39,566 nt of DNA from Planctomycetaceae bacterium. GTDB taxonomy: Bacteria > Planctomycetota > Planctomycetia > Pirellulales > Thermoguttaceae. The stretch's first letter is position 1. Each line of letters begins with the position of its first letter. The notes under the pieces were generated by a model, which worked only from the letters and a program-made list of their open reading frames with translations, did not search any database and was not told the origin of the DNA. Where the stretch lies: positions 729-40,294 of the forward strand of contig DOMV01000119.1 in assembly GCA_003509805.1 (NCBI GenBank), written 5' to 3'. Positions 9,681 to 38,422 of this stretch are shown here, piece by piece. The translations under genes and the position numbers were made by a program.

Positions 9681-9830
9681 TATACTGGAAACGCGATGAA
9701 AACGGACATTTGGTCAAGCCTGCTTGCCGCACTCACTCGCCATAACGTAACGGTAAATAACAGGTTACACGTTGCGTTCGAGCGGCAAACGATTGTTCGC
9801 GGGAGCATTTTCGGGCCGTTCGAAGGATAC
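9681..9830 (-). repeat. family A inverted-repeat element, full copy (A1)
   Basis: Begins TATACTGGAAACGCGATGAAAACGGACAT. Inner inverted repeat is TTGCCGC...GCGGCAA. Ends ...GGCCGTTCGAAGGATAC. The reverse complement aligns end-to-end with 27892-28040. Strand is given relative to a consensus ending ...GCGTTTCCAGTATA. Confidence 0.85.
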
Positions 9831-9992
9831 ATCGAAGACGCCCGTGCCCCGACCGACTTCGGCATAAAACTATCGTGGAAGACAACTTCCCAATAAAGAT
9901 AATCGATAATCGGTAAGTTGTCAAACGGCAGGAATAGAATTTCCCCGTGTTTTTCCACCGAAGCGCGTTGAAGCCGGTTGAGTTTCCCGTTT

Positions 9993-10111
9993 TATACCGA
10001 AGCCGGTTGAGTTTTCCGTTCAACCGCCTGTTTACTCTTCGGGCAGAGTTGTTTCCGGTGGGCAGACCCCCGAATCGTCGGCTTTGGGAAATTTCAAAGG
10101 TCTTCAGTATA
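9993..10111 (+). repeat. family B inverted-repeat element, full copy (119 nt)
   Basis: TATACCGAAGCCGGTTGAGTTTTCCGTT...GTTTACTCTTCGGGCAGAGTTGTTTCCGGTGGGCAGACCCCCGAATCGTCGGCTTTGGGAAATTTCAAAGGTCTTCAGTATA. A partial direct duplicate of its 5' arm precedes it at 9966-9992. Confidence 0.8.
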
Positions 10112-10117
10112 ACCGTT

Positions 10118-10151
10118 CGTTTACCCTCCGTGCGGTGTTGTTTCGGGAAAC
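10118..10151 (+). repeat. family B internal fragment
   Basis: GTTTACCCTCCGTGCGGTGTTGTTT matches 25706-25730 (reverse complement) exactly over 25 nt. It abuts the stop of the PHA-like gene. Confidence 0.6.
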
Positions 10152-10152
10152 A

Positions 10153-10458
10153 TCAGGCCAAAACGGCCTTGAGCTCGCTCTTGACCTGGCTTTCAATCAT
10201 TCCCCGGATCACCATGGCGGCAAACGGGAGATCGAGGTCCATCCGAACTTCGCCCGGCTTCGACTCGCAAATACCGCTTACACCGAAACCGAAAGCCTTG
10301 AAGGAAAATTTCAAGGTATGCGGATCGGGCCGGGTTTCGATGAGATCGCGAACCTCGTATTGATGCTTTTCCTTGATTTCGAGAAGCTTTTTATTCAATC
10401 GCGCCGTCGCTTCCTCCTGGTCGAGCGGGTGCGATACCGAAACGATCATCTGCGGCAT
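10153..10458 (-). CDS. polyhydroxyalkanoic-acid-system (PHA_gran_rgn-like) small protein
   Basis: The ATG at 10458 gives a 101-aa protein, MPQMIVSVSHPLDQEEATARL...GEVRMDLDLPFAAMVIRGMIESQVKSELKAVL. Its layout matches my recollection of the approximately 90-aa PHA system family. The tracked ORF extends further upstream without support. Confidence 0.65.
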   Translation of the reverse strand: MPQMIVSVSHPLDQEEATARLNKKLLEIKEKHQYEVRDLIETRPDPHTLKFSFKAFGFGVSGICESKPGEVRMDLDLPFAAMVIRGMIESQVKSELKAVLA

Positions 10459-10566
10459 GGCTTCTGGTGAAAAGTTGAAAAGGGGTGAAGGTCTCGCCGT
10501 TTTATTCGAACGACATCGAATCAACCGCGGGCAGTATATCACAATGCTCATCCCACCGCAATATCA

Positions 10567-11763
10567 TCATGCAAGGTCATCGCGTGGAGCCTGTTTTTCA
10601 CGGTCCCAATAGGGCGAGGCGGTACGCAGTCGGGCAATCATTTCCGGAAAAACGGCGAGAACCCGGTCGACTTCCGCCTCCGTGGTGTACCGACTCAGGC
10701 TCATCCGGATGCTTCCATGTTTTGCCGTAAACGGAACATTCATTGCCGTAAGAACATGGGATGGCTTAAGGGAACCGGAGGTGCAGGCGGAACCGCTTGA
10801 GGCACAAATCCCCTCTTTGTCGAGCAAATAGAGGATCGATTCGCCTTCGATGCAGTGAAACGCGAAATTCAGCGTGTTCGGTATCCGCTCGGCACCGTGC
10901 CCGTTGACCTCGACATGAGAAACCAGTCGAAGCATCCCTGTTTCCAGTTTGTCCCGCAATCGCTCGATACGCTTCATGTCTTCGTCATGGGTCGCAGCCG
11001 CAATCTCCATCGCCTTGGCAATCCCGGCAATGTAGGGGGCATTTTCCGTTCCGCCGCGACGTCCCGCCTCTTGGTGACCACCGATCAGGAGAGCCCGGCA
11101 CGGCGTTCCGCGACGCAAATAAAGAACGCCTATACCCTTTGGGGCGTGAAACTTATGTCCGGAAAACGAAAGCATGTCGACGTTTCGGAAATTTCCCGAC
11201 ATGGAAATCGGCAACTTCGTGAGCGATTGCGTCGCATCGCAATGAAAGAGAATGCCCGGATCGGTTTCTTTCGCGATCCGGGCAAGCCGTTCGATCGGGA
11301 AAATCACGCCCGTCTCGTTATTCGCGTGCATGAGGGACACCATGAGCGTATCCGACCTCAACGCGCGAACGTATTCGGCGATGTCAAGGTTGCCTTGCCG
11401 ATCGACGCCGACAAACGAAACCTCATATCCGTTGCGGGAAAAATCCCGGCTCAATTCCAGCACGGCCGGGTGTTCGACTGCCGACGTAATGATGTGCCGC
11501 CGCTGCGGAACCGCCGACGCCGCTCCCCGCATGGCCGCGTTGATACTTTCCGTCGCGCAACCGGTAAAGACGATTTCCCTGCTCGAAGCGGCCCCGATTC
11601 CTTCCGCAACGACCTTTCGGGCCGTATCGATGGCCGTCCTGGCCGGTTTGGCCGCCTCATACATCGAACCGGCATTGAAATAAACATCGTGAAAATACGG
11701 CAACATCGCTTCCAGCACCTCGGTTGCCACCTGCGTCGTCGCGTTATTATCGAGATAAATCAT
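10567..11763 (-). CDS. nifS: cysteine desulfurase, NifS/IscS class-V aminotransferase
   Basis: 398 aa. MIYLDNNATTQ, SFSGHKFHAPKGIGVLY (PLP lysine) and the catalytic loop SSGSACTSG. Confidence 0.9.
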   Translation of the reverse strand: MIYLDNNATTQVATEVLEAMLPYFHDVYFNAGSMYEAAKPARTAIDTARKVVAEGIGAASSREIVFTGCATESINAAMRGAASAVPQRRHIITSAVEHPAVLELSRDFSRNGYEVSFVGVDRQGNLDIAEYVRALRSDTLMVSLMHANNETGVIFPIERLARIAKETDPGILFHCDATQSLTKLPISMSGNFRNVDMLSFSGHKFHAPKGIGVLYLRRGTPCRALLIGGHQEAGRRGGTENAPYIAGIAKAMEIAAATHDEDMKRIERLRDKLETGMLRLVSHVEVNGHGAERIPNTLNFAFHCIEGESILYLLDKEGICASSGSACTSGSLKPSHVLTAMNVPFTAKHGSIRMSLSRYTTEAEVDRVLAVFPEMIARLRTASPYWDREKQAPRDDLA

Positions 11764-11811
11764 GATCGAAAGAAGTTTTACTGAACACCGTCAGGATTTC
11801 CTGAAATCGGT

Positions 11812-14800
11812 TCACGGCGTCGACTCCGGCGGTTCCGGCGCTGCTTTTTTCTCTTTCCCGTTCGGTTTCGGCTCTTGCGGCGGCGCTGGAACACGACCGA
11901 ACAACTGGGCCAAATCACCGAATCCGCGAAGCGGTTCCTTACCGGTTTTCATCGCTTCGGAAATCGGCTTCACCTCTTTTCCCTTCGCCTTGAATTCATA
12001 CACTTTAGGTTGTTGCGGGCCACGATCCCTGTTGCGATCACGATCCCGGCCACGCCCGGGGCCGTTTCGCCGGGAAGATTCCTCGTGGCGTTGACCCTCC
12101 CGTGAAGTCGGCGCCTGCGAACGCGGAGCCCGCTGTTCGCGGGGTTGCTGTTCGCGCGAATCACGGGAAGTTCGTGCCCCGGATGTTTCCTCGCGATGGT
12201 CGCGTCGTTCCGATTTCGTTCCGTGTTCCGGGCGTCGGCGCGTCGCTTCCGGCGGAAAGAGCGTCAACGAAATCCGGTGCCGTTCCTTATCGACTTCGAG
12301 CACCCAGACGCGGACGATATCACCGACGGAGACCACTTCATGCGCATCGCGGATATACCGGTCGGCCAAGTGGGAAATGTGGATCAGGCCGGAATCATGG
12401 AGACCGATGTCAACGAAGGCCCCGAAATCGACCACGTTCAAAATCGTTCCCGTCAGTTCCATCCCGACGACCAGGTCGTCGAGTTTGAGAACGCCCTTTT
12501 TGAAGATCGGCGGCGGGAGCGATTCGCGCGGATCCCGTCCCGGCTTGGCAAGTTGTGTCAGGACGTCGCGAACCGTATGGACACCGGCGCCGAGTTCTTC
12601 GGCAAGCGCGACCACGTTGGTCGCCAACCGTTTTTCCGCGATTTCCCTGACTTTCTCCGGTTGCCGGAGATCGTCCGGCTGAAAGCCGAGCTTGGCGAGA
12701 ATCGTGGCGGCAAGCTCATAGGATTCGGGGTGAATCCACGTCGCGTCAAGCGGATTTTCACCGTCGATGATCTTCAGGAAGCCGGCCGCGTGGGTAAAAG
12801 CGGCCTGACCGAAACCCGGTACGTTGAGCAGTTCCTGCCGGGACTTGAACGGGCCGTTGGTCTGTCGGTAATCGTAAATCCGCCGGGCCGTGAGTTGATT
12901 GAGGCCCGCGACATAACGCAGAATCGCAGGGGTCGCCGTATTCAGGTCGACACCCACGAAATTCACGCAGGATTCGACGACTTCATTCAGCGCATCCTTG
13001 AGCGGCTTCGTTTTGATGTCGTGCTGATACATGCCGACGCCGAGGCTCGCCGGGTCGATCTTGACCAATTCGTTCAGCGGATCCTGTAAACGCCGCCCGA
13101 TGGAAATCGTGCCGCGCACAAGCGGATCAAACTCGGGAAACTCCTCTTTCGCCTGCGGAGAAACGGAGTACACACTCGCGCCCGACTCGTTGACGATCAC
13201 GTAGGAAACGTCCTGCCCCGCGAGCGGTTCGGATGCGAGAAGCCCGCTGACAAACGATTCCGTTTCCCGGCAGGCGGTTCCGTTGCCGATCGCAATCGCG
13301 GGAATCCGGTACTTTTCAACCAGCTCGGTCAAAACCTGTTTCGCTTTTTCTTTTTTCTCGGCGCCTCCCGTGAGATAAACGGTGGTGTGCTCCAACACGT
13401 TTCCAAACTCGTCGAGCGCGACGATCTTGCAACCGTGCTTGAAACCGGGGTCGATCGCGAGAACGCGCTTGCGATGGAGCGGCGGCTGGAGCAAGAGGTT
13501 GCGCAAATTTTTGGCGAAAACCCGGATCGACTGGTTTTCCGCCTGCTCGGTCAAGTCGTTTCTCAGTTCCCGTTCGATGGAAGGCACCAACAGGCGCGCA
13601 AGCGCATCCCGGGCGACGCCGGCCAAAAAAACCGCGTGGGGATGTTCCGCGGCGACACACAGCGATTCCGCGGCTCTATTCAAGGTTTCCATGTCGTTTT
13701 GAATCCTGACCCGGATCGCCTTGATTTTCTCGCCCCGGTTGATCGCCATGATGCGGTGCGGGGGCAATCTCCGAATGTCGGAGGTGAAATCGAAATAATC
13801 GTGATAATGCCGGTCAAGACCTTCCTGCCGCTTGAGTTTGGCTTCCTCTCGCTGCTTTTTCTTCTCTTTCGCCTTCTTCTTCTTGATCTGATTTTGGGAA
13901 CGGACAACCGGAATCCCTTTTTCCTTCTGCTGCTCTTTCCACTCGCGGAATTTTTGATCGATTTCCTCGGTTTCCGACGGCGTTTTTCCCCCGGCTTCAC
14001 CGGTTTCATCGGCTTCCCGGGCTTCCAGAGTTCCCGGGGGTTCCTCCGCCACGCCGCCGCCGTCCTCCTTCATCAATCCATGCGATTCTTCATCGGCCGG
14101 TCGCGCATCGTTCGGTCGCGCATCGTTCGCGTCCGTCTCTTTTTCCTTTTCTTCGTCAACGGCCGAAGCGGATTCCGGAGCCGAATCGGGAACCGGCCTT
14201 TCCGATACGACGGGACCATCGACACGCCCATCAACATCGGCCTCGCCTCCGCCGCTCCCGCTGTCGGAAACCGCCTCGCCCGTCTCTTCCCGGACGTCAT
14301 CCGTAGCGTTCACTTCCGCCGTCTCCGTGTTGCCGGGTTCCGTCTTGTCCGGCAGTTCTCCGGATTGCGATTCGGCAGCGACCGGCTCAGCCCCATGATC
14401 CCCGGCGGGTTCGAGGCTCGTTTCCCTGTCGGCCGGCTCCGCGGCTCCGGTCGATTCAATGGGTTTATCGGTCTCGGTTTTGTCGGTTTCAGGTTTGTCG
14501 GTTTCAGGTTGAATTTCCCCGGCGTTTCCAAGCGAGTTCCCGGCGATGTTCCCGGTGTTCTTGCTGTTTTTCGTTTCCGCCTCCCTTGCGGGCTCTTTTG
14601 CGACGCGAACGGTCGCGAGCTTGCTGCTTCGATGGATGATTTCACGCACTTCGTGACGCAGTTCGATTTTTTCGACGAATAATTCTCCGATGATGTGTCC
14701 CGCCCCGAGAAGAGCCTCGGCCGCGGAAAGAACCTTCTTGTCCGGATCGACGAAAGCGAGAGCGCGTTTGTCCAGATCGGCGGCAAGGTCATCGGCTTCG

Positions 14801-15198
14801 AGAATATTCATCGCAAACGGCTCCAGCCCTTTTTCCCGGGCCTCGGAAGCGAGTGTTTTTTTCTTCGGCTTGAACGGCAGGTAAATATCCTCAAGTCGTT
14901 TGGCCGATTTGGCTTCGCGTATCTTTTTATCAAGTTCCGGCGTCAACTGGCCGAGCGATTCGATGGAACGCAAGATGGTCTGTTTCCGCTCCGCCAAGGT
15001 CCGGAGAGACGCGAGTTCCGCCTGAACGCGACGTATCTGTTCTTCATCCAGATTTCCCGTCCGATCCTTTCGATATCGGGCGATAAACGGGACGGGATGT
15101 CCCTCGTCAAGGAGCTCGACGACGTTGTGAACTTGCTCAGGCGGGAGATTCAAATCCCGGGCCATAAAACGAAGGTTGATCGTTACGGGTTCGCTCAT
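11812..15198 (-). CDS. tex: Tex-like transcription accessory protein (S1 domain) with large low-complexity insertion and basic tail
   Basis: The ATG at 15198 (MSEPVTINL...). The N-terminus has the Tex motif VPFIARYRKDRTGNLDEEQI, followed by YqgF/HhH-like regions. An S1 domain is present (GMELTGTILNVVDFGAFVDIGLHDSGLIHIS...RISLTL). An extra acidic/lysine-rich insert of about 270 aa and an R/E-rich tail of about 170 aa are also present. Confidence 0.9.
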   Translation of the reverse strand: MSEPVTINLRFMARDLNLPPEQVHNVVELLDEGHPVPFIARYRKDRTGNLDEEQIRRVQAELASLRTLAERKQTILRSIESLGQLTPELDKKIREAKSAKRLEDIYLPFKPKKKTLASEAREKGLEPFAMNILEADDLAADLDKRALAFVDPDKKVLSAAEALLGAGHIIGELFVEKIELRHEVREIIHRSSKLATVRVAKEPAREAETKNSKNTGNIAGNSLGNAGEIQPETDKPETDKTETDKPIESTGAAEPADRETSLEPAGDHGAEPVAAESQSGELPDKTEPGNTETAEVNATDDVREETGEAVSDSGSGGGEADVDGRVDGPVVSERPVPDSAPESASAVDEEKEKETDANDARPNDARPADEESHGLMKEDGGGVAEEPPGTLEAREADETGEAGGKTPSETEEIDQKFREWKEQQKEKGIPVVRSQNQIKKKKAKEKKKQREEAKLKRQEGLDRHYHDYFDFTSDIRRLPPHRIMAINRGEKIKAIRVRIQNDMETLNRAAESLCVAAEHPHAVFLAGVARDALARLLVPSIERELRNDLTEQAENQSIRVFAKNLRNLLLQPPLHRKRVLAIDPGFKHGCKIVALDEFGNVLEHTTVYLTGGAEKKEKAKQVLTELVEKYRIPAIAIGNGTACRETESFVSGLLASEPLAGQDVSYVIVNESGASVYSVSPQAKEEFPEFDPLVRGTISIGRRLQDPLNELVKIDPASLGVGMYQHDIKTKPLKDALNEVVESCVNFVGVDLNTATPAILRYVAGLNQLTARRIYDYRQTNGPFKSRQELLNVPGFGQAAFTHAAGFLKIIDGENPLDATWIHPESYELAATILAKLGFQPDDLRQPEKVREIAEKRLATNVVALAEELGAGVHTVRDVLTQLAKPGRDPRESLPPPIFKKGVLKLDDLVVGMELTGTILNVVDFGAFVDIGLHDSGLIHISHLADRYIRDAHEVVSVGDIVRVWVLEVDKERHRISLTLFPPEATRRRPEHGTKSERRDHREETSGARTSRDSREQQPREQRAPRSQAPTSREGQRHEESSRRNGPGRGRDRDRNRDRGPQQPKVYEFKAKGKEVKPISEAMKTGKEPLRGFGDLAQLFGRVPAPPQEPKPNGKEKKAAPEPPESTP

Positions 15199-15293
15199 GA
15201 TCACATTACAGCCTTTTGTCATGCGCAAAAGGAACAAAAAGTGAGGGACAATCGACCGCCGACATCCCGGCGGTAACAAAAATACACTTATGC

Positions 15294-15322: not shown

Positions 15323-15434
15323 GGACTATGGATCGAGATTGTCCCCGAAACGGAACGTCTGCAAGCCGGGAACGAAGCGTAGCGCAGTGACCGGAGTCAT
15401 TCTTGCATTTCCCCTCGGGGCCTTCGGTACACGC

Positions 15435-20116: not shown

Positions 20117-20277
20117 TATACTGTAAACGGCATGAAACTACGGCATGTTTTTTCCCTCGCACAATCGCCTGCCGCTCGAACGATCCGTATAAGTAATTAC
20201 ATTAACAAAAGTTAGAAGCGTGCGAGTGCGGCAGGCAGACTTGACCGAATGTCCGTTTTCATCGCGTTTCCAGTATA
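20117..20277 (+). repeat. family A element, full copy (A2)
   Basis: TATACTGTAAACGGCATGAAACTACGGCATG...CACAATCGCCTGCCGCTCGAACGATCCG...GCGAGTGCGGCAGGCAGACTTGACCGAATGTCCGTTTTCATCGCGTTTCCAGTATA. TA lies on both flanks, and there is a small internal ACGGCATG duplication. Confidence 0.88.
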
Positions 20278-20318: not shown

Positions 20319-20347
20319 TTGACATGTTGACCGGAAGCATATATAAT
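20319..20347 (+). promoter_or_regulatory. sigma70-type promoter for fabF (TTGACA-17-TATAAT)
   Basis: Perfect consensus hexamers with a 17-nt spacer, about 55 nt upstream of the fabF ATG. Confidence 0.65.
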
Positions 20348-22821: not shown

Positions 22822-23347
22822 TGGAGAATTGAGAATGCATTTCGCCTCCTCGCCAAAATCTGTGGGTGCATCCCGGTTCCTCTACTTTTTACCCACACGT
22901 CTTGGTGGGGAACCTCACTTTTGAGGAATTGAATGCGTCCACTCGCACGACGATATCCTGTGCGCCCGGATATTTATAGACCTGCGAATAAATTTTGACC
23001 AGTCGGTCGAGCCGCTCCTACGCGCCGTATGGTTGGAATACGGCGCGGCTTCCTTCGGCGCCGCCACGTTCAAACTTTCTTGTCCCATTCTGGGATATAA
23101 AAACCCTCGCCTTGAGGCGATACTTTTGTTACACTGGGTTGTATGGGCAATTATCGCCGCACATCCCATACGAAGTTTGACATCAAATTGCATTTCGTTT
23201 GCCCCGTTCGATTGGCAGGGCGAAATTTCGCAAAAAATTGCTGATCGGTTCGGTCGCGACGCGGGCTCGTGATCGGATCCGACAGATTATAACGATTGAC
23301 GGCAAACTATGGGATAAGGATTTTGCTTTATGAGGAAAATGCGTACA

Positions 23348-23433
23348 TATACTGTTTATATTTTTTTCTTTTTGTTGTTCGTTATCCTCTTGCATATTGT
23401 GCGCGGGAACAATTTCAGGCCGTTTACGGTATA
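23348..23433. repeat. mini element (86 nt): A-type termini around an AT-rich filler
   Basis: TATACTGTTTATATTTTTTTC...TTGTGCGCGGGAACAATTTCAGGCCGTTTACGGTATA. The right half is the reverse complement of the A 5' arm, in the subtype seen at 36571-36786. TA lies on both flanks. Confidence 0.6.
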
Positions 23434-25217: not shown

Positions 25218-25279
25218 GTTCGCCGCGACCGGCGGCGGGGTGAAATGGTCTCAGCCCTGGAAAATCCGTTCTTGCGCCG

Positions 25280-25307
25280 TTGCACGATAAAAAAAAGCCC
25301 CTATAAT
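25280..25307 (+). promoter_or_regulatory. sigma70-type promoter for tRNA-Ser (TTGCAC-16-TATAAT)
   Basis: The -10 hexamer ends 16 nt before the mature tRNA 5' end. Confidence 0.55.
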
Positions 25308-25323
25308 GTACGTTGTCGTCCTT

Positions 25324-25405
25324 GGAGGGTAAGCGAATGGCTAGCGGCCTCATTGGAAATGAGGTGCCCCGAAAGGGGTTGCGGGTTCGAGTCCCGTGCC
25401 CTCCG
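25324..25405 (+). tRNA. tRNA-Ser (anticodon GGA), class II with long variable arm
   Basis: 7-bp acceptor stem (GGAGGGT/GCCCTCC) with discriminator G. Anticodon arm is CCTCA-TTGGAAA-TGAGG, variable arm CCCC-GAAA-GGGG, T arm GCGGG-TTCGAGT-CCCGT. No CCA is encoded. I could not draw a clean D stem by eye, so tRNAscan-SE should confirm. Confidence 0.8.
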
Positions 25406-25638
25406 CTTTGGCTGTGTGTCGATCGGTCCGCATCGGTCGGTCTCTTGGCTGAAAGTTGGACGTAAGGCGGCGTTGCATGAAAAGCACCCCGAGGGCGGAC
25501 GGGCGAGCCGCTCGGAAGAGCCGTTTCGGCTTCGAACCCCTCGATCGTATGCCGCTTACACTTTCTTCGACGTCGGTCAGTCTTGTTGCCGAAACGATCG
25601 AGGTCGTCGCGCGTATCAAGGAGGATGCCGGCCGGGAA

Positions 25639-25758
25639 TATACTGGAGGCTGTTGAGATTTCCCGAAGCCGACTTTCGAGAAGCCCGCCCTCGAAAAACA
25701 ACACCGCACGGAGGGTAAACGGGCGGACCAAACGGAAAACTCAACCGGCTTCGGACTA
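25639..25758 (-). repeat. family B element, full copy (120 nt)
   Basis: TATACTGGAGGCTGTTGAGATTTCCCGAAGCCGACTTTCGAGAAGCCCGCCCTCGAAAAACAACACCGCACGGAGGGTAAAC...AACGGAAAACTCAACCGGCTTCGGACTA. The reverse complement aligns along its whole length with 9993-10111. Confidence 0.8.
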
Positions 25759-25811: not shown

Positions 25812-25971
25812 TATACCGGAAACGCGATGAAAACGGACATTCGGTCAAGTCCGCCTGTCGCACTCGCCCACTCTACCTTTGTCAATGCAGGTATTTACGC
25901 GGATCGTTCGAGCGGCAGGCGGTTATGCGCGGGACTGTTCGCGGGAGGATCGTCATGCCGTTTACGGTCGA
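25812..25971 (-). repeat. family A element, full copy (A3)
   Basis: TATACCGGAAACGCGATGAAAACGGACATTCGGTCAAGTCCGCCTGTCGCACTCGCC...CGTTCGAGCGGCAGGCGG...GGGAGGATCGTCATGCCGTTTACGGTCG. Confidence 0.85.
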
Positions 25972-25986: not shown

Positions 25987-27792
25987 CTAAACGATTTCCG
26001 CTTTGAATTCCGCTTCCAATAATTTTTTGCCTTTCGCTCCTTGGGCGTCGTCGACGGTGACGCTCACGCACACTTCGCTAGTGGCAATCAGGCTGACATT
26101 GATGCCGCCGTCGGCGAGCGTGCGGAACATGCGGTAGGCAAGCCCGGTGTGGCTGCGGAGTCCCGTACCCCGCAGGATCAGTTTCGCGACCGTCGGGTTG
26201 TGCGTCACGACGTCGCATTGGAGATGTTTCCGCAATTTTTCGCAAACGGCGAGTGTCTTTTTCAAGTCATCGCGGGCAACCGTGAAACTGAAACTCGCGA
26301 CGCCGTCGACGCCGTTGCTTTGAACGATCATGTCGACGACGACTCCCTCGGCGGCAATCCGGTCGAACACGGTCGCCGCGATTCCCGGAGTATCGGGCAT
26401 CCCGGCAAGCGTGATCCGCGACTGGGTCCGGTCGAGCGAAACCTCCTCGATAAGGATGTCCTCCATGCCGAGATTGGAAACGCTCTGATGCTTGGCGAAC
26501 ACGTCGGCAGGGCTCTGCTTCGCGATCTTCCGTCGCGGCGAACAGACCGACGCTCCTTTTTTCCCTTTCGGCGCAACGAGCGGTCTTTCCAGTTGAAACT
26601 CGCGATGCAAGGATCGCAGCGCCTCCTGGGCCTGGGCTTTTTCGATCAGCGCCGAAATTTTGATTTCGCTCGTGGAAATCATTTTGATGTTGATTCCGCT
26701 TTCGGACAGGGCGTGGAACATCCGCCGGGCGACGCCGTGCTGGTTTTCCATGCCGAGTCCGACCACGGAAACCTTGGCGACATCGTCTTCGTATTCGACA
26801 CCGACGGCGCCGACTTCCTGGGCGGCCAGCCGGAGCACCTCGATCGCCGCCGGGCGGTCGATCGCGGGGACGGTGAAGGAAATGTCGGCAAGACCGTCGC
26901 CGCCCACGTTCTGGACGATCATGTCAACCGCGATTTTCGCTTCGGCCATCCGGGAGAAAATGCGCACGGCATTGCCCGGCCGGTCGGGCACATCGACGAT
27001 GGTCAACCGGGATTCTTTCGCCGCGAGGGCGACCCCGCTCACCGGGGCGCAATCCGATTCCGGTTCGGCGAGGATCAACGACCCGGTCGTATCGCTGAAA
27101 CTGCTGCGAACATGGATCGCGACGCCGAATTTTTTGGCGAATTCGATCGACCGGCTGTGCATGACGCCGGCCCCGAGGCTGGCCAGTTCGAGCATTTCAT
27201 CGTAGGCGATCCGCTCCACCTTCCTCGCTTCCGGGAGCAATCGCGGATCGGTCGTGTAGACGCCGTCAACATCCGTATAGATTTCGCATTCATGCGCTCC
27301 CAATGCCGCGGCAAGCGCCACCGCCGTCGTATCGCTTCCGCCCCGGCCGAGCGTGGTGATGTTACCTTCGTCGTCAATCCCCTGGAAACCGGCGGCAATG
27401 ACGATCTTCCCGGAATCGAGCGCTTTCCTCATGCGCTCCGTCGAAATCGATTTGATCCGTGCCCGCATGAACGCGTTGTCCGTCTTGATCCCGAGCTGCG
27501 CCGCCGTCATGCTGACCGCGTCTTCACCGAGCGATTTGAGGGCGATCGCCATCAGGGCCACCGTCACCTGCTCGCCGCTCGACATCAGCATGTCCATTTC
27601 CCGGGAATCGGGACGTTCCATGATTTCATGGGCCAGCGCGATCAGGTGGTCGGTCGTTTTTCCCATCGCGCTGAGCACCATAACCACTTGGTGGCCCTGC
27701 TGTTTCGCCCGGATTGCCTTCCGGGCCGCTTCACAAATTTTCCGGGTGTCGGCAACGCTCGTGCCGCCGAATTTCTGGACGAGAATGGTCAT
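25987..27792 (-). CDS. lysC: aspartate kinase with duplicated (4x) ACT regulatory domains
   Basis: The ATG at 27792 (MTILVQKFGGTSV...). Motifs: VVMVLSAMGKTTD, GRGGSDTTAVALAA. After the usual ACT pair and a linker, a second ACT pair follows. Total length is 601 aa. Confidence 0.93.
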   Translation of the reverse strand: MTILVQKFGGTSVADTRKICEAARKAIRAKQQGHQVVMVLSAMGKTTDHLIALAHEIMERPDSREMDMLMSSGEQVTVALMAIALKSLGEDAVSMTAAQLGIKTDNAFMRARIKSISTERMRKALDSGKIVIAAGFQGIDDEGNITTLGRGGSDTTAVALAAALGAHECEIYTDVDGVYTTDPRLLPEARKVERIAYDEMLELASLGAGVMHSRSIEFAKKFGVAIHVRSSFSDTTGSLILAEPESDCAPVSGVALAAKESRLTIVDVPDRPGNAVRIFSRMAEAKIAVDMIVQNVGGDGLADISFTVPAIDRPAAIEVLRLAAQEVGAVGVEYEDDVAKVSVVGLGMENQHGVARRMFHALSESGINIKMISTSEIKISALIEKAQAQEALRSLHREFQLERPLVAPKGKKGASVCSPRRKIAKQSPADVFAKHQSVSNLGMEDILIEEVSLDRTQSRITLAGMPDTPGIAATVFDRIAAEGVVVDMIVQSNGVDGVASFSFTVARDDLKKTLAVCEKLRKHLQCDVVTHNPTVAKLILRGTGLRSHTGLAYRMFRTLADGGINVSLIATSEVCVSVTVDDAQGAKGKKLLEAEFKAEIV

Positions 27793-27817
27793 GGGTGATA
27801 GACGGAATGGGGTTGAA

Positions 27818-27861
27818 ATACAGTGAAAATACAGTGAAAATACGGTGAGAATACGGTGAGA
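27818..27861. repeat. 11-nt tandem repeat x4 in lysC upstream leader
   Basis: ATACAGTGAAA ATACAGTGAAA ATACGGTGAGA ATACGGTGAGA, with no gaps. It lies 26-69 nt upstream of the lysC ATG (27792, minus strand). Confidence 0.9.
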
Positions 27862-27891
27862 ATTCCGGGAAAAGTCCAGCGGTTTTCGGGA

Positions 27892-28040
27892 TATACTGCG
27901 AACGGCAAGAAAATCCTCCCGCGAACAATCACCTGCCGCTCGAACACAACGTGTAACCTGATGCTTCAAAACAAGTTAGAGCTGGCGAGTGCGGCAGGCA
28001 GGCTTGACCAAATGTGCGTTTTCATCGCGTTTCCAGTATC
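27892..28040 (+). repeat. family A element, full copy (A4)
   Basis: TATACTGCGAACGGCAAGAAAATCCTCCCGCGAACAATCACCTGCCGCTCGAAC...GGCGAGTGCGGCAGGCAGGCTTGACCAAATGTGCGTTTTCATCGCGTTTCCAGTATC. It lies between the DUF1080 gene stop and the lysC start. Confidence 0.88.
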
Positions 28041-30292: not shown

Positions 30293-30340
30293 AAAACGGG
30301 CGATTGTGCGAGGGAGGATTATCATGCCGTTTACGGTATC
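30293..30340 (-). repeat. family A 5'-arm fragment
   Basis: AAAACGGGCGATTGTGCGAGGGAGGATTATCATGCCGTTTACGGTATC is the reverse complement of TATACCGTAAACGGCATGATAATCCTCCCTCGCACAATCGCC. The rest of the element is absent. It lies between the glyA stop and the pyrB start. Confidence 0.65.
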
Positions 30341-30351
30341 ACACGCGTTTC

Positions 30352-31876: not shown

Positions 31877-31959
31877 TCGAACCATGTCGGGGCGCAGGGA
31901 GTGCGCACCGGAATCGTAAGGGTCCGAGGACCATACACCTTAAAGTCGAAAAATGAACC

Positions 31960-34900
31960 ATGCCCACGGAACGGAAGCCGCAGGCGCAGCAGGAACAGGA
32001 ATTTTCACCGCTTTCGGCCCCCTTGGTCGTCCTGGCACGGTTTTGCACCAAACGACCGGTCAGTGTTCTCGCCATCGGGGTCGCGTTTTCCGTTCTGGGC
32101 TTGTTTTATGCCTATTCGCATCTCGGCTTCAAGACGAGCCGGGTCGATCTAATCAATCCGAACAGCGCATTCAATCGTCTTTGGCTCGAATATCTTGAAG
32201 AGTTCGGCGACAACGACGAGATGGTCGTCGTCGTGGAAGGCAAAAACAGTACCGAGGTCATTCCGATTCTCGAATCGCTTTCGGAAAAAATCGCGGCCCA
32301 TCCGACCCTGTTCAAAGGCGTGATTCACGGGGTGGACATCTCGAAAATCCGCGCCAAAGGGTTGCATTACGTTCCGGAAAAAGAACTTGCGACGATTGAA
32401 GGATTCGTGCAGGAAACCCGGCCGATCATCGACGGAAACTGGGCGCACCTGAGCCTCGGATATTTGCTGGAAAACATGGCGATGCGGCTCCAATTGCAGC
32501 GTCAACTCGCCGCCGTGCCGCCCGGGACCGCTGAACTGTCGGAGATGCCGCCGCCGGAAATGCTCCCGCCGGAATTCCGGGGAATCGACTTGAGGGGCGT
32601 TGATTTGAGGGGCATCGACTTGAAAAGCAAGGTGGAATCGACCCGGAGCGAACTGGAGCAGCTCACCTTGAGTTTGGAGCAATCCCTGATTTCGCCCAAC
32701 GCCTCCTACGGTTCTCCCTGGCCGCAAATCCAGGCGGGATCAATGCACCAAATGCCCGACGTCGTCGCCGCCTGTTCCCAGGGAGATACCGGCTATTTCG
32801 TGATTCCGACCAAAAACGGCGTATTCGGTTTCGTCATGCTCCGTATCGCGGATGCGAACAAGCAGTCGTTCACCTACGGTTCCGGGGCGATCGACCAATT
32901 GCGTTCGATCGTCGCGGAGGAACGGGGACGTTTTCCGGAAGTCGACATCGGGATCACGGGCATGATCGTGATTGAAAACGACGAAATGCGGGGCAGCGGC
33001 GAAGCGATGACCCTCGCCTCGATCCTTTCGTTGATCGGTGTGGCCGCGGTCTTCATCGCCGGTCTCGGCGGATTTCGACATCCGATGATGGGCGTCTGCG
33101 CAATGCTGATCGCCTTCGGCTGGACCATCGGCTTCATTACGTTGACGATCGGGCACCTGAACATCCTGAGCGTCGCCTTCGGTTCGATCCTGATCGGCCT
33201 CGGCATTGATTTCGGGACACATTATGTTTCCAGATATTTGCAGGTACGCAAGACGGTCCGCAGCCCTGCCGAGGCGATCGTCCGGGCGGCCGGGATCATC
33301 GGGCCGGGCGTCGTTACCGGCGCGATAACGACGGCAGCCGCGTTTTTCATGGCCGGTTTCGCCGAATTTACCGGGATTGCGGAACTGGGAATCATTTCCG
33401 GCGGCGGGATCCTCTGTTGCTGTCTCGGAGCCGTCACGCTGGTTCCCGCGATGATCGTGCTCAGCGATGCCAACCGGCCGATGCGCCGATTGCCGGAACC
33501 GCTCGACGTTCACGGTTGGATAGCGCCGATTTTCCGCTTTCCCAGGACTTTGATCGCGCTTGCGCTGATCGCGTCCGTACTGATTTGTTTCGGAGTGCCG
33601 AAAGTCTGGTATGACCACAACTTGCTGCACCTCCAGGCGGACGGGGAAGAAAGCGTCGAATGGGAGCGGCGGATGATGGACATTGAAAACGGCGGCCAAA
33701 ACGCCTGGTACGCCCTTTCCATTGCCGAAAGTCGCGAACAGCTTTTACGGCGCAAGGCGGAATTCGAGGAGCGCTACCCGGAATTGAGGGTCGATGAAAT
33801 CGTCTCCTGGTTCCCGGAAACCGATCCGCAACGGACCCCTTACATCAACCGTATTGCCGAGCGGCTTGCCGTACTCCCGGAACGTCCGTCGGAAATCCCG
33901 GTGTCCGATCCCGATGTGGTTGGTCGCACGTTGCACCGGCTCCAGCTCTTGATCGCTTCCGATCCGGGCGCCGCACCGACCGTCAAACGCCTGGAAAACA
34001 TTCGTAACTGGCTTCGTGGCACGGGTCGCGACGAATGTCTTCGCCGGCTTTCGCAGTACCAAAGCTCGATGGCAGGCGACCTGCTTTCCCGGCTGCTCAT
34101 GCTGAAATCGATGTCGAATCCCGAAGCGCCGACGATGAACGACCTGCCGGAATCGTTTTTAACCCGGTTCGTGAGCAAAAACGGCAAGCACCTGATGAAA
34201 ATTTACACCGACGTCGACATCTGGAACATGGAGGAAATGGAGCGTTTCGTCAACAAGGTGCGCAGCGTCGACGCCAATGCGACCGGAACGCCGCTCCAAA
34301 CCTACGAAGCCTCGAAGCAGATGCAACAGGGGTATGTCACCGCCGCGATTTACGCTTTCATCGCCGTGTTCGTCCTGTTGTTCATCGATTTCCGCTGCCT
34401 GAAAGAAACCTTGCTCTCGCTCGCCCCCATGTTGTTGGGGCTTTTGCTGACATTCGGGATATTGGGACTGCTCGACATTCCGCTCAATCCGGCGAACATG
34501 ATCGTCCTGCCCTTGATTCTCGGCGTCGGGATCGATTACGGTGTCCACGTCATTCACGATTTCCGGCTGCAAAAAGGACGGTATAGGATGAGTCCCTCGA
34601 CCGCCGGTTCCGTGTTGATTACGGGGCTGACGACGATGATCGGTTTCGGCTCGCTCATGATCGCTTCCCACAAGGGCCTGCAAAGCCTGGGCCGCGTGCT
34701 CGTGATCGGAATCACCTGTTGCCTGTTCACGTCGCTGATCGTTTTGCCCGCCGTGTTGATCGTATGGAGTGAATTACGCATGAAAAACGGGAGGAAATCG
34801 GAGACGGGCGAATCGGAGACGGGCGACAAAACCGGCCCTCTCGCGGCGGACGTGCCCGGCGAACCGGCTTTTCCGCGGAATGAGGAAACCTCTCCCGATG

Positions 34901-34980
34901 ACGCCGTGATTATTGTTCCGAAACCGCCCGGGAATCCCGAAGAAAACGGTGTGCGTCGCTTGCGACGCCGTGTGGGATGA
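31960..34980 (+). CDS. MMPL/RND-superfamily transporter (HpnN-like architecture)
   Basis: 1006 aa with two blocks of about 6 TM helices separated by large soluble domains, as in MMPL/sterol-sensing-type RND proteins. The C-terminal tail is low-complexity (SETGESETGDKTG). Confidence 0.85.
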   Translation: MPTERKPQAQQEQEFSPLSAPLVVLARFCTKRPVSVLAIGVAFSVLGLFYAYSHLGFKTSRVDLINPNSAFNRLWLEYLEEFGDNDEMVVVVEGKNSTEVIPILESLSEKIAAHPTLFKGVIHGVDISKIRAKGLHYVPEKELATIEGFVQETRPIIDGNWAHLSLGYLLENMAMRLQLQRQLAAVPPGTAELSEMPPPEMLPPEFRGIDLRGVDLRGIDLKSKVESTRSELEQLTLSLEQSLISPNASYGSPWPQIQAGSMHQMPDVVAACSQGDTGYFVIPTKNGVFGFVMLRIADANKQSFTYGSGAIDQLRSIVAEERGRFPEVDIGITGMIVIENDEMRGSGEAMTLASILSLIGVAAVFIAGLGGFRHPMMGVCAMLIAFGWTIGFITLTIGHLNILSVAFGSILIGLGIDFGTHYVSRYLQVRKTVRSPAEAIVRAAGIIGPGVVTGAITTAAAFFMAGFAEFTGIAELGIISGGGILCCCLGAVTLVPAMIVLSDANRPMRRLPEPLDVHGWIAPIFRFPRTLIALALIASVLICFGVPKVWYDHNLLHLQADGEESVEWERRMMDIENGGQNAWYALSIAESREQLLRRKAEFEERYPELRVDEIVSWFPETDPQRTPYINRIAERLAVLPERPSEIPVSDPDVVGRTLHRLQLLIASDPGAAPTVKRLENIRNWLRGTGRDECLRRLSQYQSSMAGDLLSRLLMLKSMSNPEAPTMNDLPESFLTRFVSKNGKHLMKIYTDVDIWNMEEMERFVNKVRSVDANATGTPLQTYEASKQMQQGYVTAAIYAFIAVFVLLFIDFRCLKETLLSLAPMLLGLLLTFGILGLLDIPLNPANMIVLPLILGVGIDYGVHVIHDFRLQKGRYRMSPSTAGSVLITGLTTMIGFGSLMIASHKGLQSLGRVLVIGITCCLFTSLIVLPAVLIVWSELRMKNGRKSETGESETGDKTGPLAADVPGEPAFPRNEETSPDDAVIIVPKPPGNPEENGVRRLRRRVG

Positions 34981-35035
34981 TCCCGGTGACGCCTGTCCGC
35001 TCGCATTCCGGGTGCGAAACGGTCGTGATTTTGTG

Positions 35036-35073
35036 GCCCCGACATGATAGCCCCGACATGATGGCCCCGACAT
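35036..35073. repeat. 14-nt tandem repeat (2 full units plus 1 partial) upstream of sigma54 activator
   Basis: GCCCCGACATGATA GCCCCGACATGATG GCCCCGACAT. Each unit carries CCCGACAT(G), the reverse complement of the CATGTCGGG motif found upstream of the MMPL gene. Confidence 0.9.
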
Positions 35074-35104
35074 TTTGGGGAATGATTTTGGAAGGAATGA
35101 ACCG

Positions 35105-36553
35105 ATGAAAATACTCTTTGCCGACGACGAAAGGTCGCTCCAGGAACTGATGCGGCTGGAATTGCCACAGATGGGACATTCGGTCGTCGTTTGCCCCGAC
35201 GGCGCGACCGCGATCTCTGCCCTGCAAAAAGAATCGTTCGATTGCCTGCTGGTCGATCTCGACATGCCCGGCGCGACGGGACTTGAAGTGATCGCGGCCG
35301 CCAGGGAGCTTTCTCCCGGAGCCGATGCCGTGATCATGACCGGTAAGGGAACGCTCGATACCGCCGTCGAAGCGATCCGGCAAGGTGTGGCCGACTATTT
35401 GACCAAACCGACGAAATTGCAGGATATCGCCCTCCTCCTCAACCGGATCGTCGAAAAACGGGCCCTGATGAACCAGTATCTCGCCGTCAAGACGCAACTC
35501 CAGCGCATCGAAGGGGGAATGCGGCTCGTCGGCGAATCGGAACCGATGCAACGGGTGTACCACGTCCTGGATCGGATCGCCCCGACCGAGTCGACGGTCG
35601 TGATTCTCGGCGACACCGGCACGGGCAAGGAATTGGTCGCCCGGGCCATCCATGACCGCAGTCCGCGGAAAGACAAGCCGTTCGTCGCCGTCAACTGCGG
35701 GGCGCTCCCGGAAACCCTGATCGAAAGCGAACTGTTCGGCCACCGCAAGGGAAGTTTCACAGGGGCCGACGAACATCGGACCGGCCTGTTCGAGGTGGCC
35801 CACGGCGGAACGCTTTTCCTCGACGAAATCGGAGAACTCCCGAAAGGCGTCCAAGCCAAGCTGTTACGTTTTCTCGAATCGGGCGAAGTGCGGAAAATCG
35901 GGGAAAACTCCTCGATTCACTGCGATGTCCGTGTCGTCTGCGCAACGCTCAAAGATCTGGAGGAAATGGTTCATTCCGGTGATTTCCGTGAAGATCTCTG
36001 GTTCCGGATCAACACGTTTGAAATCCATTTGCCGCCCCTCAAGGAACGTATCGACGATTTGCCGGACCTGATCCTGCACCTGGCGAAACGCTACCAGGTC
36101 GGGATCAATCTCCGGGACGGGGAGAAATTGTTCACCCGCGACGCCTACGAGTTGCTTCTGGCCTACGAATGGCCGGGAAACGTGCGCCAATTGGCCAACG
36201 TGATCGAGCATGCGCTGATTCTCGCGGACAAGTTGCCCATCGACGTCGGGGAACTGCCTCACGCCCTCAAACCCCGGATCGAAACGGTTCCGATCAACCA
36301 GGACCGGATTACGGAACAGCGGCCGCAGCGACCGATTACGAAGAAGGAAACCGTTCTGAACGGTCCGATGGCCGAGCTGATGTCCTTCGAACCCGAGCCG
36401 GGCCGAACACTCCGGGACATGGAAATGGATGCGATCCAATCGGCCATGCGGCGGCACGACGGCAACAAGGCCAAAGTTGCCGAAGAACTCGGTATCAGCC
36501 TGAAAACGTTGTACAACAAGCTCAACCAGAACGAGACCCGGCGGACTGCATGA
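35105..36553 (+). CDS. sigma54-dependent response regulator (NtrC/Fis family enhancer-binding protein)
   Basis: REC domain (MKILFADDE...DLDMPG...KP). AAA+ sigma54-interaction domain (GDTGTGKELVARAIH, GSFTGA, ESELFGH-type motifs, GTLFLDEIGEL). C-terminal Fis-type HTH (KAKVAEELGISLKTLYNKL). Confidence 0.92.
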   Translation: MKILFADDERSLQELMRLELPQMGHSVVVCPDGATAISALQKESFDCLLVDLDMPGATGLEVIAAARELSPGADAVIMTGKGTLDTAVEAIRQGVADYLTKPTKLQDIALLLNRIVEKRALMNQYLAVKTQLQRIEGGMRLVGESEPMQRVYHVLDRIAPTESTVVILGDTGTGKELVARAIHDRSPRKDKPFVAVNCGALPETLIESELFGHRKGSFTGADEHRTGLFEVAHGGTLFLDEIGELPKGVQAKLLRFLESGEVRKIGENSSIHCDVRVVCATLKDLEEMVHSGDFREDLWFRINTFEIHLPPLKERIDDLPDLILHLAKRYQVGINLRDGEKLFTRDAYELLLAYEWPGNVRQLANVIEHALILADKLPIDVGELPHALKPRIETVPINQDRITEQRPQRPITKKETVLNGPMAELMSFEPEPGRTLRDMEMDAIQSAMRRHDGNKAKVAEELGISLKTLYNKLNQNETRRTA

Positions 36554-36570
36554 TCCGGGTCCTTCAGACG

Positions 36571-36786
36571 TATACCGGCAACGCGGTGAAAGTGGTTGTT
36601 TGGTGAAGACGGCTTGTTGCACTCACTCGCCGCAACATATTTGCAAATATCTTGTTGTAACGATCTCTTTGTAAATAGCCTTGCAAATGTCCGGTTGCAC
36701 GTTTCATTCGAGCAACAGGCGATTGTTCACGGGAACAATTTCAGGCCGTTTGTTTCATCCGTTTGTTTCAGGCCGTTTGCGGTATA
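36571..36786 (-). repeat. family A element, diverged long copy (A6, 216 nt)
   Basis: TATACCGGCAACGCGGTGAAAGTGG...GCTTGTTGCACTCACTCGCC...CATTCGAGCAACAGGCGATTGTTCACGGGAACAATTTCAGGCCGTTTG(TTTCATCCGTTTGTTTCAGGCCGTTTG)CGGTATA. It has an internal duplication and TA on both flanks. It starts 18 nt after the activator stop. Confidence 0.8.
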
Positions 36787-36877
36787 AACAGTCCGTAATT
36801 CGGTCCGGCCGGGCGGCGCAGACGCCTGCTTTTCCGCGCATTCCGCCCGATCTCCGCCAAACGCGCTTCGCCCAACG

Positions 36878-37546
36878 TTATTCAAATGAATACGACGCTC
36901 CGGTCGCCGCGATTTGCAGCGTAAACCGGTTTTCACCGCCTTTATCCGTCGAAATGTTCTGCTGTTGGTAGGCGGCGATCGGCGAATGAGCTCCGCCCGA
37001 CCCGGTTGCGACCGCCCTGGATTCGGCGTCGAGTTGCCCGATACCGCGGACAAGGGAGGCGAGATTGGCCAATTCCTTGAACTGGCCGGCAAGTTCCGGA
37101 TCGTTTTGGAGTAAATGCCGAATTTTCGCCGCATCCGGATGGTTCCCGGAAAGCAGGAGTTCCGTCTCGTCGCCTTCTTGCAACGTCGCCGGCCGGCCCG
37201 TGTCGATGCCGTTGGATTTCATCGAACGCATCATCTGCTGTTGAAAGGTGTTGAGCTTCATTTGGAGCACGTTGGCCATCATATCGCCACGCTTTTTGAG
37301 GCTGTCCAAACCTTCCATCGGGGAAAGTGATATCCCTTCCCCATCGGCGCCGTCGAGGCCCATTTCCATATTGAGCAAATCAATTTGTTTCGAAAGCTGC
37401 GACAGAATCAGTTGATCTTCGACCGCTTTTTTATCGGCTTTTCCGCCTGACACGTTGGCGGCAAGATCGGAAATGCCCGAGGTGAACGATTGAAGGGCCG
37501 CATTTCCTTTTTGGAAGATACCGGACAGGGAGGAGGAGTTTATCAT
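36878..37546 (-). CDS. hypothetical soluble protein (222 aa)
   Basis: The ATG at 37546 (MINSSSLSGIF...) is chosen. The tracked N-terminal extension to 37753 is a read-through of a repeat element. No TM segment and no family recognised. Confidence 0.5.
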   Translation of the reverse strand: MINSSSLSGIFQKGNAALQSFTSGISDLAANVSGGKADKKAVEDQLILSQLSKQIDLLNMEMGLDGADGEGISLSPMEGLDSLKKRGDMMANVLQMKLNTFQQQMMRSMKSNGIDTGRPATLQEGDETELLLSGNHPDAAKIRHLLQNDPELAGQFKELANLASLVRGIGQLDAESRAVATGSGGAHSPIAAYQQQNISTDKGGENRFTLQIAATGASYSFE

Positions 37547-37647
37547 GGGATTTGTTGGCCTGAAAATGAAGGAGAAAAAGGGATCATCCAGGCGAACGAT
37601 ACGAAAATCGACATTTTCCGTCCAGAGCAGAAATGGAAATTTTTGGG

Positions 37648-37729
37648 TATCCCCGAAGCCGGTCGCGTGCCGCGATGGGCGGCAGGCGGACTTGACCAAA
37701 ATGGTCGTTTTCATCGCGTTTCCGGTACA
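37648..37729 (+). repeat. hybrid element: B-type 5' terminus fused to A-type 3' arm
   Basis: TATCCCCGAAGCCGGT (B 5' end), then ...GGGCGGCAGGCGGACTTGACCAAAATGGTCGTTTTCATCGCGTTTCCGGTACA (A 3' arm). Confidence 0.65.
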
Positions 37730-37760
37730 CTTGTACTCAACCGGCTTCGACATGATACGA

Positions 37761-38072
37761 CTATGGTTTTTCTTCGTCGGGACAGATGCAGGCGTATTCT
37801 CCGCACCCTGGACAGCCGGTCCCGTATTTTTCGGCGATTGCTTCGGTCAAGTCGCACTCGACGACATTGGCAATGGTCGTAAGCCAGGCGAGGACGTCGG
37901 CAAATTCCAACCGGATTTCATCCGGTCTGCCGTTTCGCAACGCGGCGGCAAGCTCCCCGATTTCCTCCATCAGCCACATGAATGTCCCGTCGACGCCGCG
38001 CTGTCGATCCTTTTCATAGTACATTTTGCGAATAAGCCGCTGGAAATCCCGTATTGAAATCTCGTTTTTCAT
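37761..38072 (-). CDS. MazG-like nucleotide pyrophosphohydrolase domain protein
   Basis: 103 aa. The E-x2-E-x12-ish-E-x2-D pattern (MEEIGELAAAL...EFADVLAWL) is typical of small MazG-type proteins. The tail is Cys-rich (GCPGCGEYACICP). Confidence 0.8.
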   Translation of the reverse strand: MKNEISIRDFQRLIRKMYYEKDRQRGVDGTFMWLMEEIGELAAALRNGRPDEIRLEFADVLAWLTTIANVVECDLTEAIAEKYGTGCPGCGEYACICPDEEKP

Positions 38073-38225
38073 AGTTTTACCGTCACAAATGGTTTTTTTG
38101 ACAGAATAGGGCAGGATATTCTTAATCCACCGAAGCCGACTTTCAACCGACTGTCGCTATAAACCGCAAAGATTACCATATTTCCAATAAAAAAGCATCA
38201 TTTCCTTGAAAAAATAAAAAGAGGT

Positions 38226-38253
38226 TTGACATGACTGTGAGAGTTGCTAAAAT
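38226..38253 (+). promoter_or_regulatory. sigma70-type promoter (TTGACA-16-TAAAAT) reading into repeat A5 and tatA
   Basis: An A-rich UP-like tract (AAAAATAAAAAGAGG) precedes the -35 hexamer. The next ORF on this strand is tatA at 38583. Confidence 0.55.
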
Positions 38254-38272
38254 GGCACGCAGAGGGTTGTTG

Positions 38273-38422
38273 TGTACTGCGAACGGCATGACGATCCTCC
38301 CGCGAACAATCACCTGCCGCTCGAACGATCCGTTTAAGCACTTGTCTGAAAAGACGTTAAAGGAGAGTGAGTGCGGTAGGCAAACTTGACCGCATGTCCG
38401 TTTTCATCGCGTTTCCAGTATA
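38273..38422 (+). repeat. family A element, full copy (A5)
   Basis: TGTACTGCGAACGGCATGACGATCCTCCCGCGAACAATCACCTGCCGCTCGAACGATCCG...GAGTGAGTGCGGTAGGCAAACTTGACCGCATGTCCGTTTTCATCGCGTTTCCAGTATA. It begins about 13 nt downstream of the predicted start point of a strong sigma70-like promoter. Confidence 0.88.

Follow-up and report, generated by a model that had tools for sequence, protein, structure and literature searches.

What are the repeats that fill the gene spacers in a housekeeping region of a planctomycete genome? The region in question is a 39,566-nt stretch of contig DOMV01000119.1 (positions 729 to 40,294; assembly GCA_003509805.1, Planctomycetaceae bacterium), hereafter called the window, in which an initial annotation had picked out six full-length copies of a repeat of some 150 nt, here named family A. 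[quoted passage not shown] From the analysis described here, family A is very probably a MITE, i.e., the non-coding remnant of a DNA transposon with a TA target-site duplication, and the enzyme that mobilised it is, on balance, likely to have belonged to the IS630/Tc1-mariner superfamily.

The six intervals align end to end, and an nhmmer profile made from them (copies c1 to c6, Table 1) recovered all six with E values of 1e-38 to 1e-46. The three-part layout with an imperfect terminal inverted repeat and flanking TA was found as described, with degenerate termini in four copies: the 5′ terminus of c1 reads TATCC, that of c3 is without its first TAT, the outer 3′ TA of c4 is mutated to TC, and c6 starts with TG. 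The copy c5, which had been called diverged and internally duplicated, has a 5′ end with a duplicated AAACGGCCTGAAAC and, by inspection of the sequence, an internal insertion of about 40 nt. Once gene starts were properly called, all six copies proved to be intergenic, in both orientations, and only spurious short open reading frames (ORFs) overlap copies of family A. The one apparent conflict, between c4 and the ORF at 25987..27969(-), which encodes aspartate kinase, disappears because the kinase domain starts only at residue 62 and the codon model places the start of the gene at 27792.

Nested insertions and the TA target

The experiment that nature has left for testing mobility involves another family of repeats, B (length about 103-120 nt; consensus TATACCGAAGCCGGTTGAG...GGGAAATTTCAACGGCTTTCAGTATA), which has in common with family A both the tip TA|TACYG...CAGTA|TA and the TA duplication, and which gave 151 profile matches in related contigs (designated L; see below). 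Copies of the two families are found inside each other; host-family copies that contain no insert served as empty sites, which are thus paralogous. In eight cases A lies inside B, and removal of the A element together with one TA restores a full B match (model positions 1-104); in three cases B lies inside A, the insertion point being a TA that belongs to the consensus of A. One of the empty sites is in the window itself, where the B copy at 9992..10111 corresponds to the site of an A insertion in contig L133. All 11 nested insertions fit the scheme TA -> TA[TAC...GTA]TA, and the L079/L082 case rules out a 3-bp duplication. Since TA stands on both sides of the insert in every one of them, the element proper is TAC...GTA and the outer TAs are the target-site duplication; written out, it reads 5′-TAC[C/T]G[T/G]AAACG...CGCGTTTCC[A/G]GTA-3′ with one target TA per side. 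The elements have therefore inserted at TA with duplication of this dinucleotide, both into intergenic spacers and reciprocally into each other.

Bacterial MITEs are shorter than 200 bp and have terminal inverted repeats with a terminal TA, as well as target-site duplications (PMC2229807). By the criteria of the same work, family A is small and non-coding, has terminal inverted repeats and a target-site duplication, and is present in many dispersed copies in both orientations (PMC2229807), which bears out the proposal of a non-autonomous MITE with a TA duplication. Elements of the IS630/Tc1-mariner type insert almost exclusively at TA, with TA duplication, and the binding sites of their transposases are imperfect inverted repeats some 24 bp long, nothing else being needed in cis (PMC2170065). 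The exact TA target and the 2-bp TA duplication thus point to a MITE that was mobilised in trans by an enzyme of this type. In the mechanism that we propose, the 22-nt terminal inverted repeats of family A would be the sites of transposase binding and cleavage, leaving the central ~40 nt free to vary, and a DDE transposase acting in trans would make a 2-bp staggered cut at TA. The tip TA|TACYG common to A and B suggests that one enzyme probably served both families. The expansion to hundreds of copies took place in a single termite-gut planctomycete lineage close to Thermoguttaceae, and appears to have been followed by quiescence.

The second suggestion of the initial annotation, repeats of the REP/BIME type, which as palindromic units would have been spread by a RAYT tyrosine (HUH) transposase, now appears extremely improbable. 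Family A does resemble REP/BIME in its high copy number, its intergenic position and a degree of dyad symmetry, but its unit is 150 nt and not 20-40 bp, its terminal inverted repeats are true ones, TA is duplicated at the target, and its consensus is without the GTAG or CGTC head, features in which it departs from REP/BIME with RAYT (PMC3733652, PMC2817692). There are also no regularly alternating clusters, and no RAYT-like multi-copy ORF was seen when the ORFs of the related contigs were clustered.

Copy number and host

Metagenome contigs with further copies were found by means of an exact 23-mer from the 3′ end of family A, CGTTTTCATCGCGTTTCCRGTAT. At least 118 contigs contain it and, among the matches listed, all are in the termite-gut assemblies QMCD01 and QMCE01. 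On these contigs the profile gave 275 matches in 955 kb, 213 of them full-length, in addition to the window copies, so that the further copies for which a wider search had been recommended exist in hundreds. When one pattern-bearing copy per contig was removed to correct for ascertainment, the exact 23-mer was present in only 16 of the 78 copies left, from which it follows that roughly one family member in five was reached by the scan. Where QMCD and QMCE contigs overlap, they are 99.4-99.8% identical and so represent two strains of one species, which leads to the rough estimate of several hundred family A copies per genome.

Proteins identical to those of the window are also encoded in the termite-gut assemblies ERZ922776, ERZ922779, Logan SRR6485831 and QMCE01, and contig QMCE01004338.1 is 99.9% identical to window positions 6347-12609. 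The best named homologues of the PEPCK are proteins of "Thermoguttaceae bacterium" with 78-79% identity. DUF1559/prepilin-type proteins make up the largest family of paralogues on the related contigs. The host is therefore an uncultured planctomycete of the termite gut that stands close to Thermoguttaceae. A 17-mer scan of genome contigs returned only single chance matches in unrelated taxa, none of them family A by profile, and no family A match was found among viral contigs, plasmids or phages. The phylogenetic range was sampled through protein look-ups of relatives, and about 65 kb from related planctomycetes (70-90% amino-acid identity) contained no copy of A or B, indicating that the expansion occurred within a narrow lineage. 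Of the contigs that other assemblies contain for this organism, four (L172, L174, L177 and L178) begin or stop inside family A copies; evidently these repeats fragment short-read assemblies.

Anatomy of family A

The consensus and the terminus statistics were derived from 153 unique copies. The consensus has 150 nt and a G+C content of 49% (TATACCGTAAACGGCCTGAAACTCTTCCCGCGCACAATCGCCTGCCGCTCGAACGATCCGTTTAAGTCATTATATAAACAGAAGTTAGGGGCGAGTGAGTGCGGCAGGCAGACTTGACCAAATGTCCGTTTTCATCGCGTTTCCAGTATA), and lengths have modes near 150 and 161 nt, the longer class, to which c2 belongs, being due to an 11-12-nt duplication near the 5′ arm. The 5′ end, which was not selected by the scan, reads TATAC[C/T]G[T/C]AAACGGC (T 92, A 92, T 91, A 92, C 98, Y, G 83, N, A 86, A 96, A 96, C 98, G 97, G 94 and C 97%), the outer T and A thus being kept at 92% each. 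The terminal inverted repeats are 22 nt long and imperfect, with 72% of cells paired and with three positions that are unpaired in every copy, and such fixed mismatches are the typical pattern of the left and right ends of a transposon and not of an RNA helix. Further inside, the arms contain a 9-bp palindrome (GCCTGCCGC / GCGGCAGGC) that is 94% paired, in which double changes affect 23 cells compared to 13.2 in shuffles, a value reached by none of 500 shuffles. Segment identities to the consensus, computed from the ascertainment-corrected copies (Table 1), show the core of about 40 nt to be more variable than the arms.

Points against a mobile element, and the nature of the enzyme

Several observations weigh against the interpretation of family A as an IS630/Tc1-mariner-type MITE, and concern its activity, its composition and folding, the enzyme, and the choice of target. 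With respect to activity, there is no sign of current mobility: the mean pairwise identity of paralogous copies is 76%, the median identity to the nearest neighbour is 90% and no pair exceeds 98%, and where assemblies with 99.4-100% identity were aligned, over 141 kb, all 28 copies are in place. The comparison of filled and empty sites proposed in the initial annotation therefore had a divided outcome, in that the TA duplication was exact at the paralogous sites (11/11), but presence/absence polymorphism was not observed, 28 of 28 copies being fixed. Orthologous empty sites were found neither within the species, where the other assemblies are 99.4-100% identical and have all sites filled, nor in relatives with 70-90% amino-acid identity, in which there was no synteny and no alignable spacer. 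The composition is also unlike that of the textbook bacterial MITE, which is A+T-rich, the 49% G+C of the consensus comparing with about 57% for the window. The same applies to folding, which was no better than that of shuffled sequences for both strands, as RNA or as DNA (z -0.02, -1.19 and -1.27). A+T-richness and a long stable stem-loop are common in bacterial MITEs; they do not define them.

The folding result also bears on the idea that the many paralogous copies of family A encode a structured non-coding RNA or serve as a cis-regulatory leader, to which we attach next to no probability. The repeat is conserved and intergenic and has its small conserved inner stem, as such an RNA might, but neither strand folds better than shuffles, the consensus structure of the alignment has only 7 pairs and -4.98 kcal/mol, and Rfam gave no match over the window at gathering thresholds and none on c4 at E up to 1. 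Moreover, the copies point either way with respect to genes and are inserted in other repeats with target duplication.

The enzyme was searched for in several ways. As had been noted, none is apparent in the window: no transposase domain was found among 30 of its ORFs tested against Pfam. Clustering of the ORFs in about 1 Mb of contigs yielded no multi-copy transposase-like ORF, only DUF1559 and other host families, and jackhmmer with crude, approximate IS630 and Mos1 queries gave no match. Where the gene model made no calls, the long ORFs encode secreted proteins of low complexity with no transposase among them, and the 20 genes of most atypical codon usage contain no transposase domain. The autonomous transposase flanked by the same termini, for which a search had been suggested, did not turn up in the ~1 Mb either; pairs of end motifs 0.8-2.6 kb apart merely bracket ordinary genes, the motif being common in spacers. 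Absence from about 1 Mb of fragmented contigs of an incomplete genome is, in itself, weak evidence.

The choice of target shows an asymmetry that a palindromic TA does not predict. In 10 of the 11 nested insertions the element is co-oriented with its host element (p 0.012), and the flanks of family A are not palindromic, T being enriched on one and the same strand to either side of the element. In addition, five of the eight A-in-B insertions, independent-looking ones, used the same B site GTT|TA|CC (context CCGCCTGTT|TA|CCTTCGG; Table 1). The co-orientation and the asymmetric flanks, together with the lack of an IS630-like ORF in the ~1 Mb, are what favours a MITE moved by some other transposase, such as an IS5-group enzyme making short TA-containing duplications or a member of an undescribed family. 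The tip TA|TACYG, moreover, is not known to match the ends of Tc1, mariner or IS630. We regard another transposase as possible but rather unlikely, given that all 11 cases show a TA duplication of exactly 2 bp, the signature of IS630/Tc1-mariner (PMC2170065), and that a partner missing from fragmented contigs says little. A bolder version would be that one still-unseen transposase drives A, B and perhaps more families, reading little beyond TA|TACYG and choosing target and orientation asymmetrically. It derives from the 10/11 co-orientation, the 5/8 use of one site and the same-strand T-rich flanks, and seems to us improbable; if true, the asymmetry would point to a new type of transposase in Planctomycetota or to selection by the host for one orientation, the 3′ end facing a gene start in 61% of cases (see below).

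Returning to the MITE, the identities and the fixation of its copies make family A look old and now quiescent or extinct. The indels that distinguish the QMCD and QMCE strains include no insertions. Apart from one tandem-duplication difference, they are deletions of 92 and ~57 nt bounded by microhomology of 2-3 nt (Table 1), and since these clip copies of family B, the repeats are being eroded rather than gained.

Position relative to genes and the question of a host function

Among 148 copies of family A in the related contigs L050-L167 and the window, 140 are intergenic. The copies lie in both orientations and in all four kinds of gene spacer, and also inside other repeats, so they are not the conserved syntenic leaders of orthologous genes that had been named as an alternative. 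Co-directional spacers contain 51 sense and 40 antisense copies, which is not a significant difference, and there are 32 copies in divergent versus 13 in convergent spacers. In 83 versus 53 cases (61%; p 0.013, uncorrected for multiple tests) it is the 3′ end that is directed towards the start of the neighbouring gene.

This last bias might indicate that the copies, having arisen as MITEs, are now kept for the host, as a protein-binding site, a promoter or untranslated-region module, or a nucleoid or recombination signal. Such a role would agree with the fixation of all copies across strains, with the conservation of the arms (85-91%, compared to a mean pairwise identity of 76%), with the pairing and the excess double changes of the inner palindrome, and with strong sigma-70-like promoters 10-20 nt outside c4 and c6 that would transcribe through both copies. 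On the other hand, no promoter-like or terminator-like site is present inside any window copy, the bias in orientation is a weak one, subfamily descent could account for the palindrome signal, and the relatives are without the element, so that no conserved function is older than the expansion. Taken together, retention for a host function appears doubtful.

The predicted, near-perfect sigma-70-type promoters just outside c2, c4 and c6 are at 20319-20347(+) (12/12 matches), 28076-28049(-) (11/12) and 38226-38253(+) (11/12), respectively, and read-through is predicted to be antisense for c4 and sense for c6.

Comparison with known elements

The MITE family described here resembles several known systems. 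The Correia/NEMIS elements of Neisseria, to which it had been likened in the initial annotation, are non-coding, ~105-155 bp long and have ~24-bp terminal inverted repeats that start with TATA; as in family A, the TA target is duplicated, there are hundreds of intergenic copies, length variants differ by an internal segment, and no cognate transposase is identified (PMC2229807). The likeness holds for this architecture and fails for the sequence, as by inspection only the TATA start is common to the Correia terminus, TATAGTGGATTAA, and to the family A end, TATACCGTAAACGG. The two also differ in phylum, and the long stable stem-loop of Correia transcripts is not formed by A.

RUP of Streptococcus pneumoniae, which goes with IS630-Spn1, has the TA target and its duplication, short imperfect terminal repeats and a length of ~100-150 bp, and inserts into insertion sequences (ISs), as A and B insert into each other (PMC2229807, PMC2170065). 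ERIC/IRU of enterobacteria is likewise intergenic, with ~127 bp, a terminal TA and a target-site duplication (PMC2229807). However, ERIC is essentially one long imperfect palindrome with inverted repeats of only 7 bp, whereas in family A the terminal repeats are 22 nt long and the core between them is unstructured. Nezha of cyanobacteria is reportedly an ISY100-like, IS630-derived MITE similar to family A. Matching inverted repeats have identified the partner IS of RUP and of Nezha; for family A none was found in ~1 Mb.

A literature search found no description of family A or of MITEs in termite-gut planctomycetes. Family A, with its MITE-like sister family B, is a hitherto uncatalogued family of MITEs of a familiar type and not a new type of system. 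The two leave the understanding of how MITEs work unchanged and are of modest interest to transposon specialists; what they offer is the documentation of a heavy MITE load in a housekeeping window and, in the reciprocal nesting of A and B, a clean natural record of TA-specific transposition. A family A model would also aid the binning, scaffolding and annotation of termite-gut planctomycete genomes.

The repeats of the window and their surroundings

A repeat-depth scan of the window against the related contigs has its peaks exactly at the family A sites and at those of the second family. Of the window, about 2.8% is family A, and the total for all repeats is 4.6%. Besides the six full copies, the same profile search revealed three solo arms that the initial annotation had not listed (Table 1), of which the one between the SHMT and carbamoyltransferase genes is identical in two other assemblies.

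Table 1. Repeat copies and associated features; locations are window positions unless a contig (L) or the family A consensus is named.
Feature	Location	Strand	Support and remarks
c1, full-length family A	9681..9830	-	nhmmer E 1.3e-46; profile bounds 9681-9831
c2, family A, 161-nt length class	20117..20277	+	nhmmer E 8.6e-45
c3, family A	25812..25971	-	nhmmer E 9.9e-41, model positions 8-152; profile bounds 25812-25967
c4, family A, upstream of aspartate kinase	27892..28040	+	nhmmer E 1.4e-46; profile bounds 27891-28040
c5, diverged family A	36571..36786	-	nhmmer E 2.3e-38; profile bounds 36571-36759/86
c6, family A	38273..38422	+	nhmmer E 2.3e-46; profile bounds 38271-38422
Solo 5′ arm, family A, upstream of pckA	23396..23433	-	nhmmer E 4.9e-07, model positions 4-41
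Solo 5′ arm, family A, between SHMT and carbamoyltransferase genes	30297..30340	-	nhmmer E 8.5e-08, model positions 4-47
Solo 3′ arm, family A, intergenic	37679..37729	+	nhmmer E 3.9e-11, model positions 103-152
Family B match	3-61
Family B match	9193-9248
Full family B copy	9992..10111	+	B profile, nhmmer 87.9 bits
Full family B copy, adjoins c3	25639..25757	-	B profile, nhmmer 86.0 bits
Truncated family B copy, abuts c6	38419-38540	-	B profile
A insertion at shared B site	L101:1086-1236
A insertion at shared B site	L050:810-959
A insertion at shared B site	L133:3035-3201
A insertion at shared B site	L116:7106-7254
A insertion at shared B site	L098:1566-1715
Strain deletion	L097:1686-1777 vs L151		removes end of family B copy
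Strain deletion	L077:1585-1641 vs L118		removes end of family B copy
5′ end	consensus 1-22		identity 0.85
5′ sub-terminal	consensus 23-52		identity 0.88
Core	consensus 53-95		identity 0.72
3′ sub-terminal	consensus 96-126		identity 0.83
3′ end	consensus 127-150		identity 0.91

The surroundings of the full copies are varied. The first, c1, is in a spacer of 543 nt that has a PHA_gran_rgn gene (10153-10458, -) on one side and a response-regulator gene (9253-9609, -) on the other, and is found at the same position in three other assemblies, while c2, located between a glycosyltransferase-4 gene and fabF, is identical in ERZ922776. The copy c3 lies 15 nt 3′ of the stop codon of the aspartate kinase gene and adjoins a family B copy, c5 is located in a convergent spacer, and c6 is in the divergent spacer of MazG and tatA, its 3′ TATA abutting a truncated B copy.

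In the related contigs, four 5′-truncated copies of family A (L101:3593-3706, L150:11272-11381, L146:9990-10095 and L126:1436-1546) all start at the inner palindrome (…GCCG|CTCGAAC), and the sequence upstream is unrelated in each, which suggests a recurrent breakpoint at this palindrome. A fifth candidate, in L100, was rejected, as it turned out to be an internal duplication and not a break.

The 770-nt spacer between pckA and the aspartate kinase gene, which holds c3 and a B copy, also contains a tRNA-Ser(GGA) gene at 25324-25406(+), and the ORF that encloses it (25245..25718) is without coding signal. The B copy that separates c1 from the PHA_gran_rgn gene has, at its 5′ end (9947-10020), a short tandem duplication, GAAGCCGGTTGAGTTT(C/T)CCGTT. 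Two further short segments of the window, 22973-23072 and 15360-15396, occur 7-8 times each in the related contigs and are probably other low-copy repeat families.

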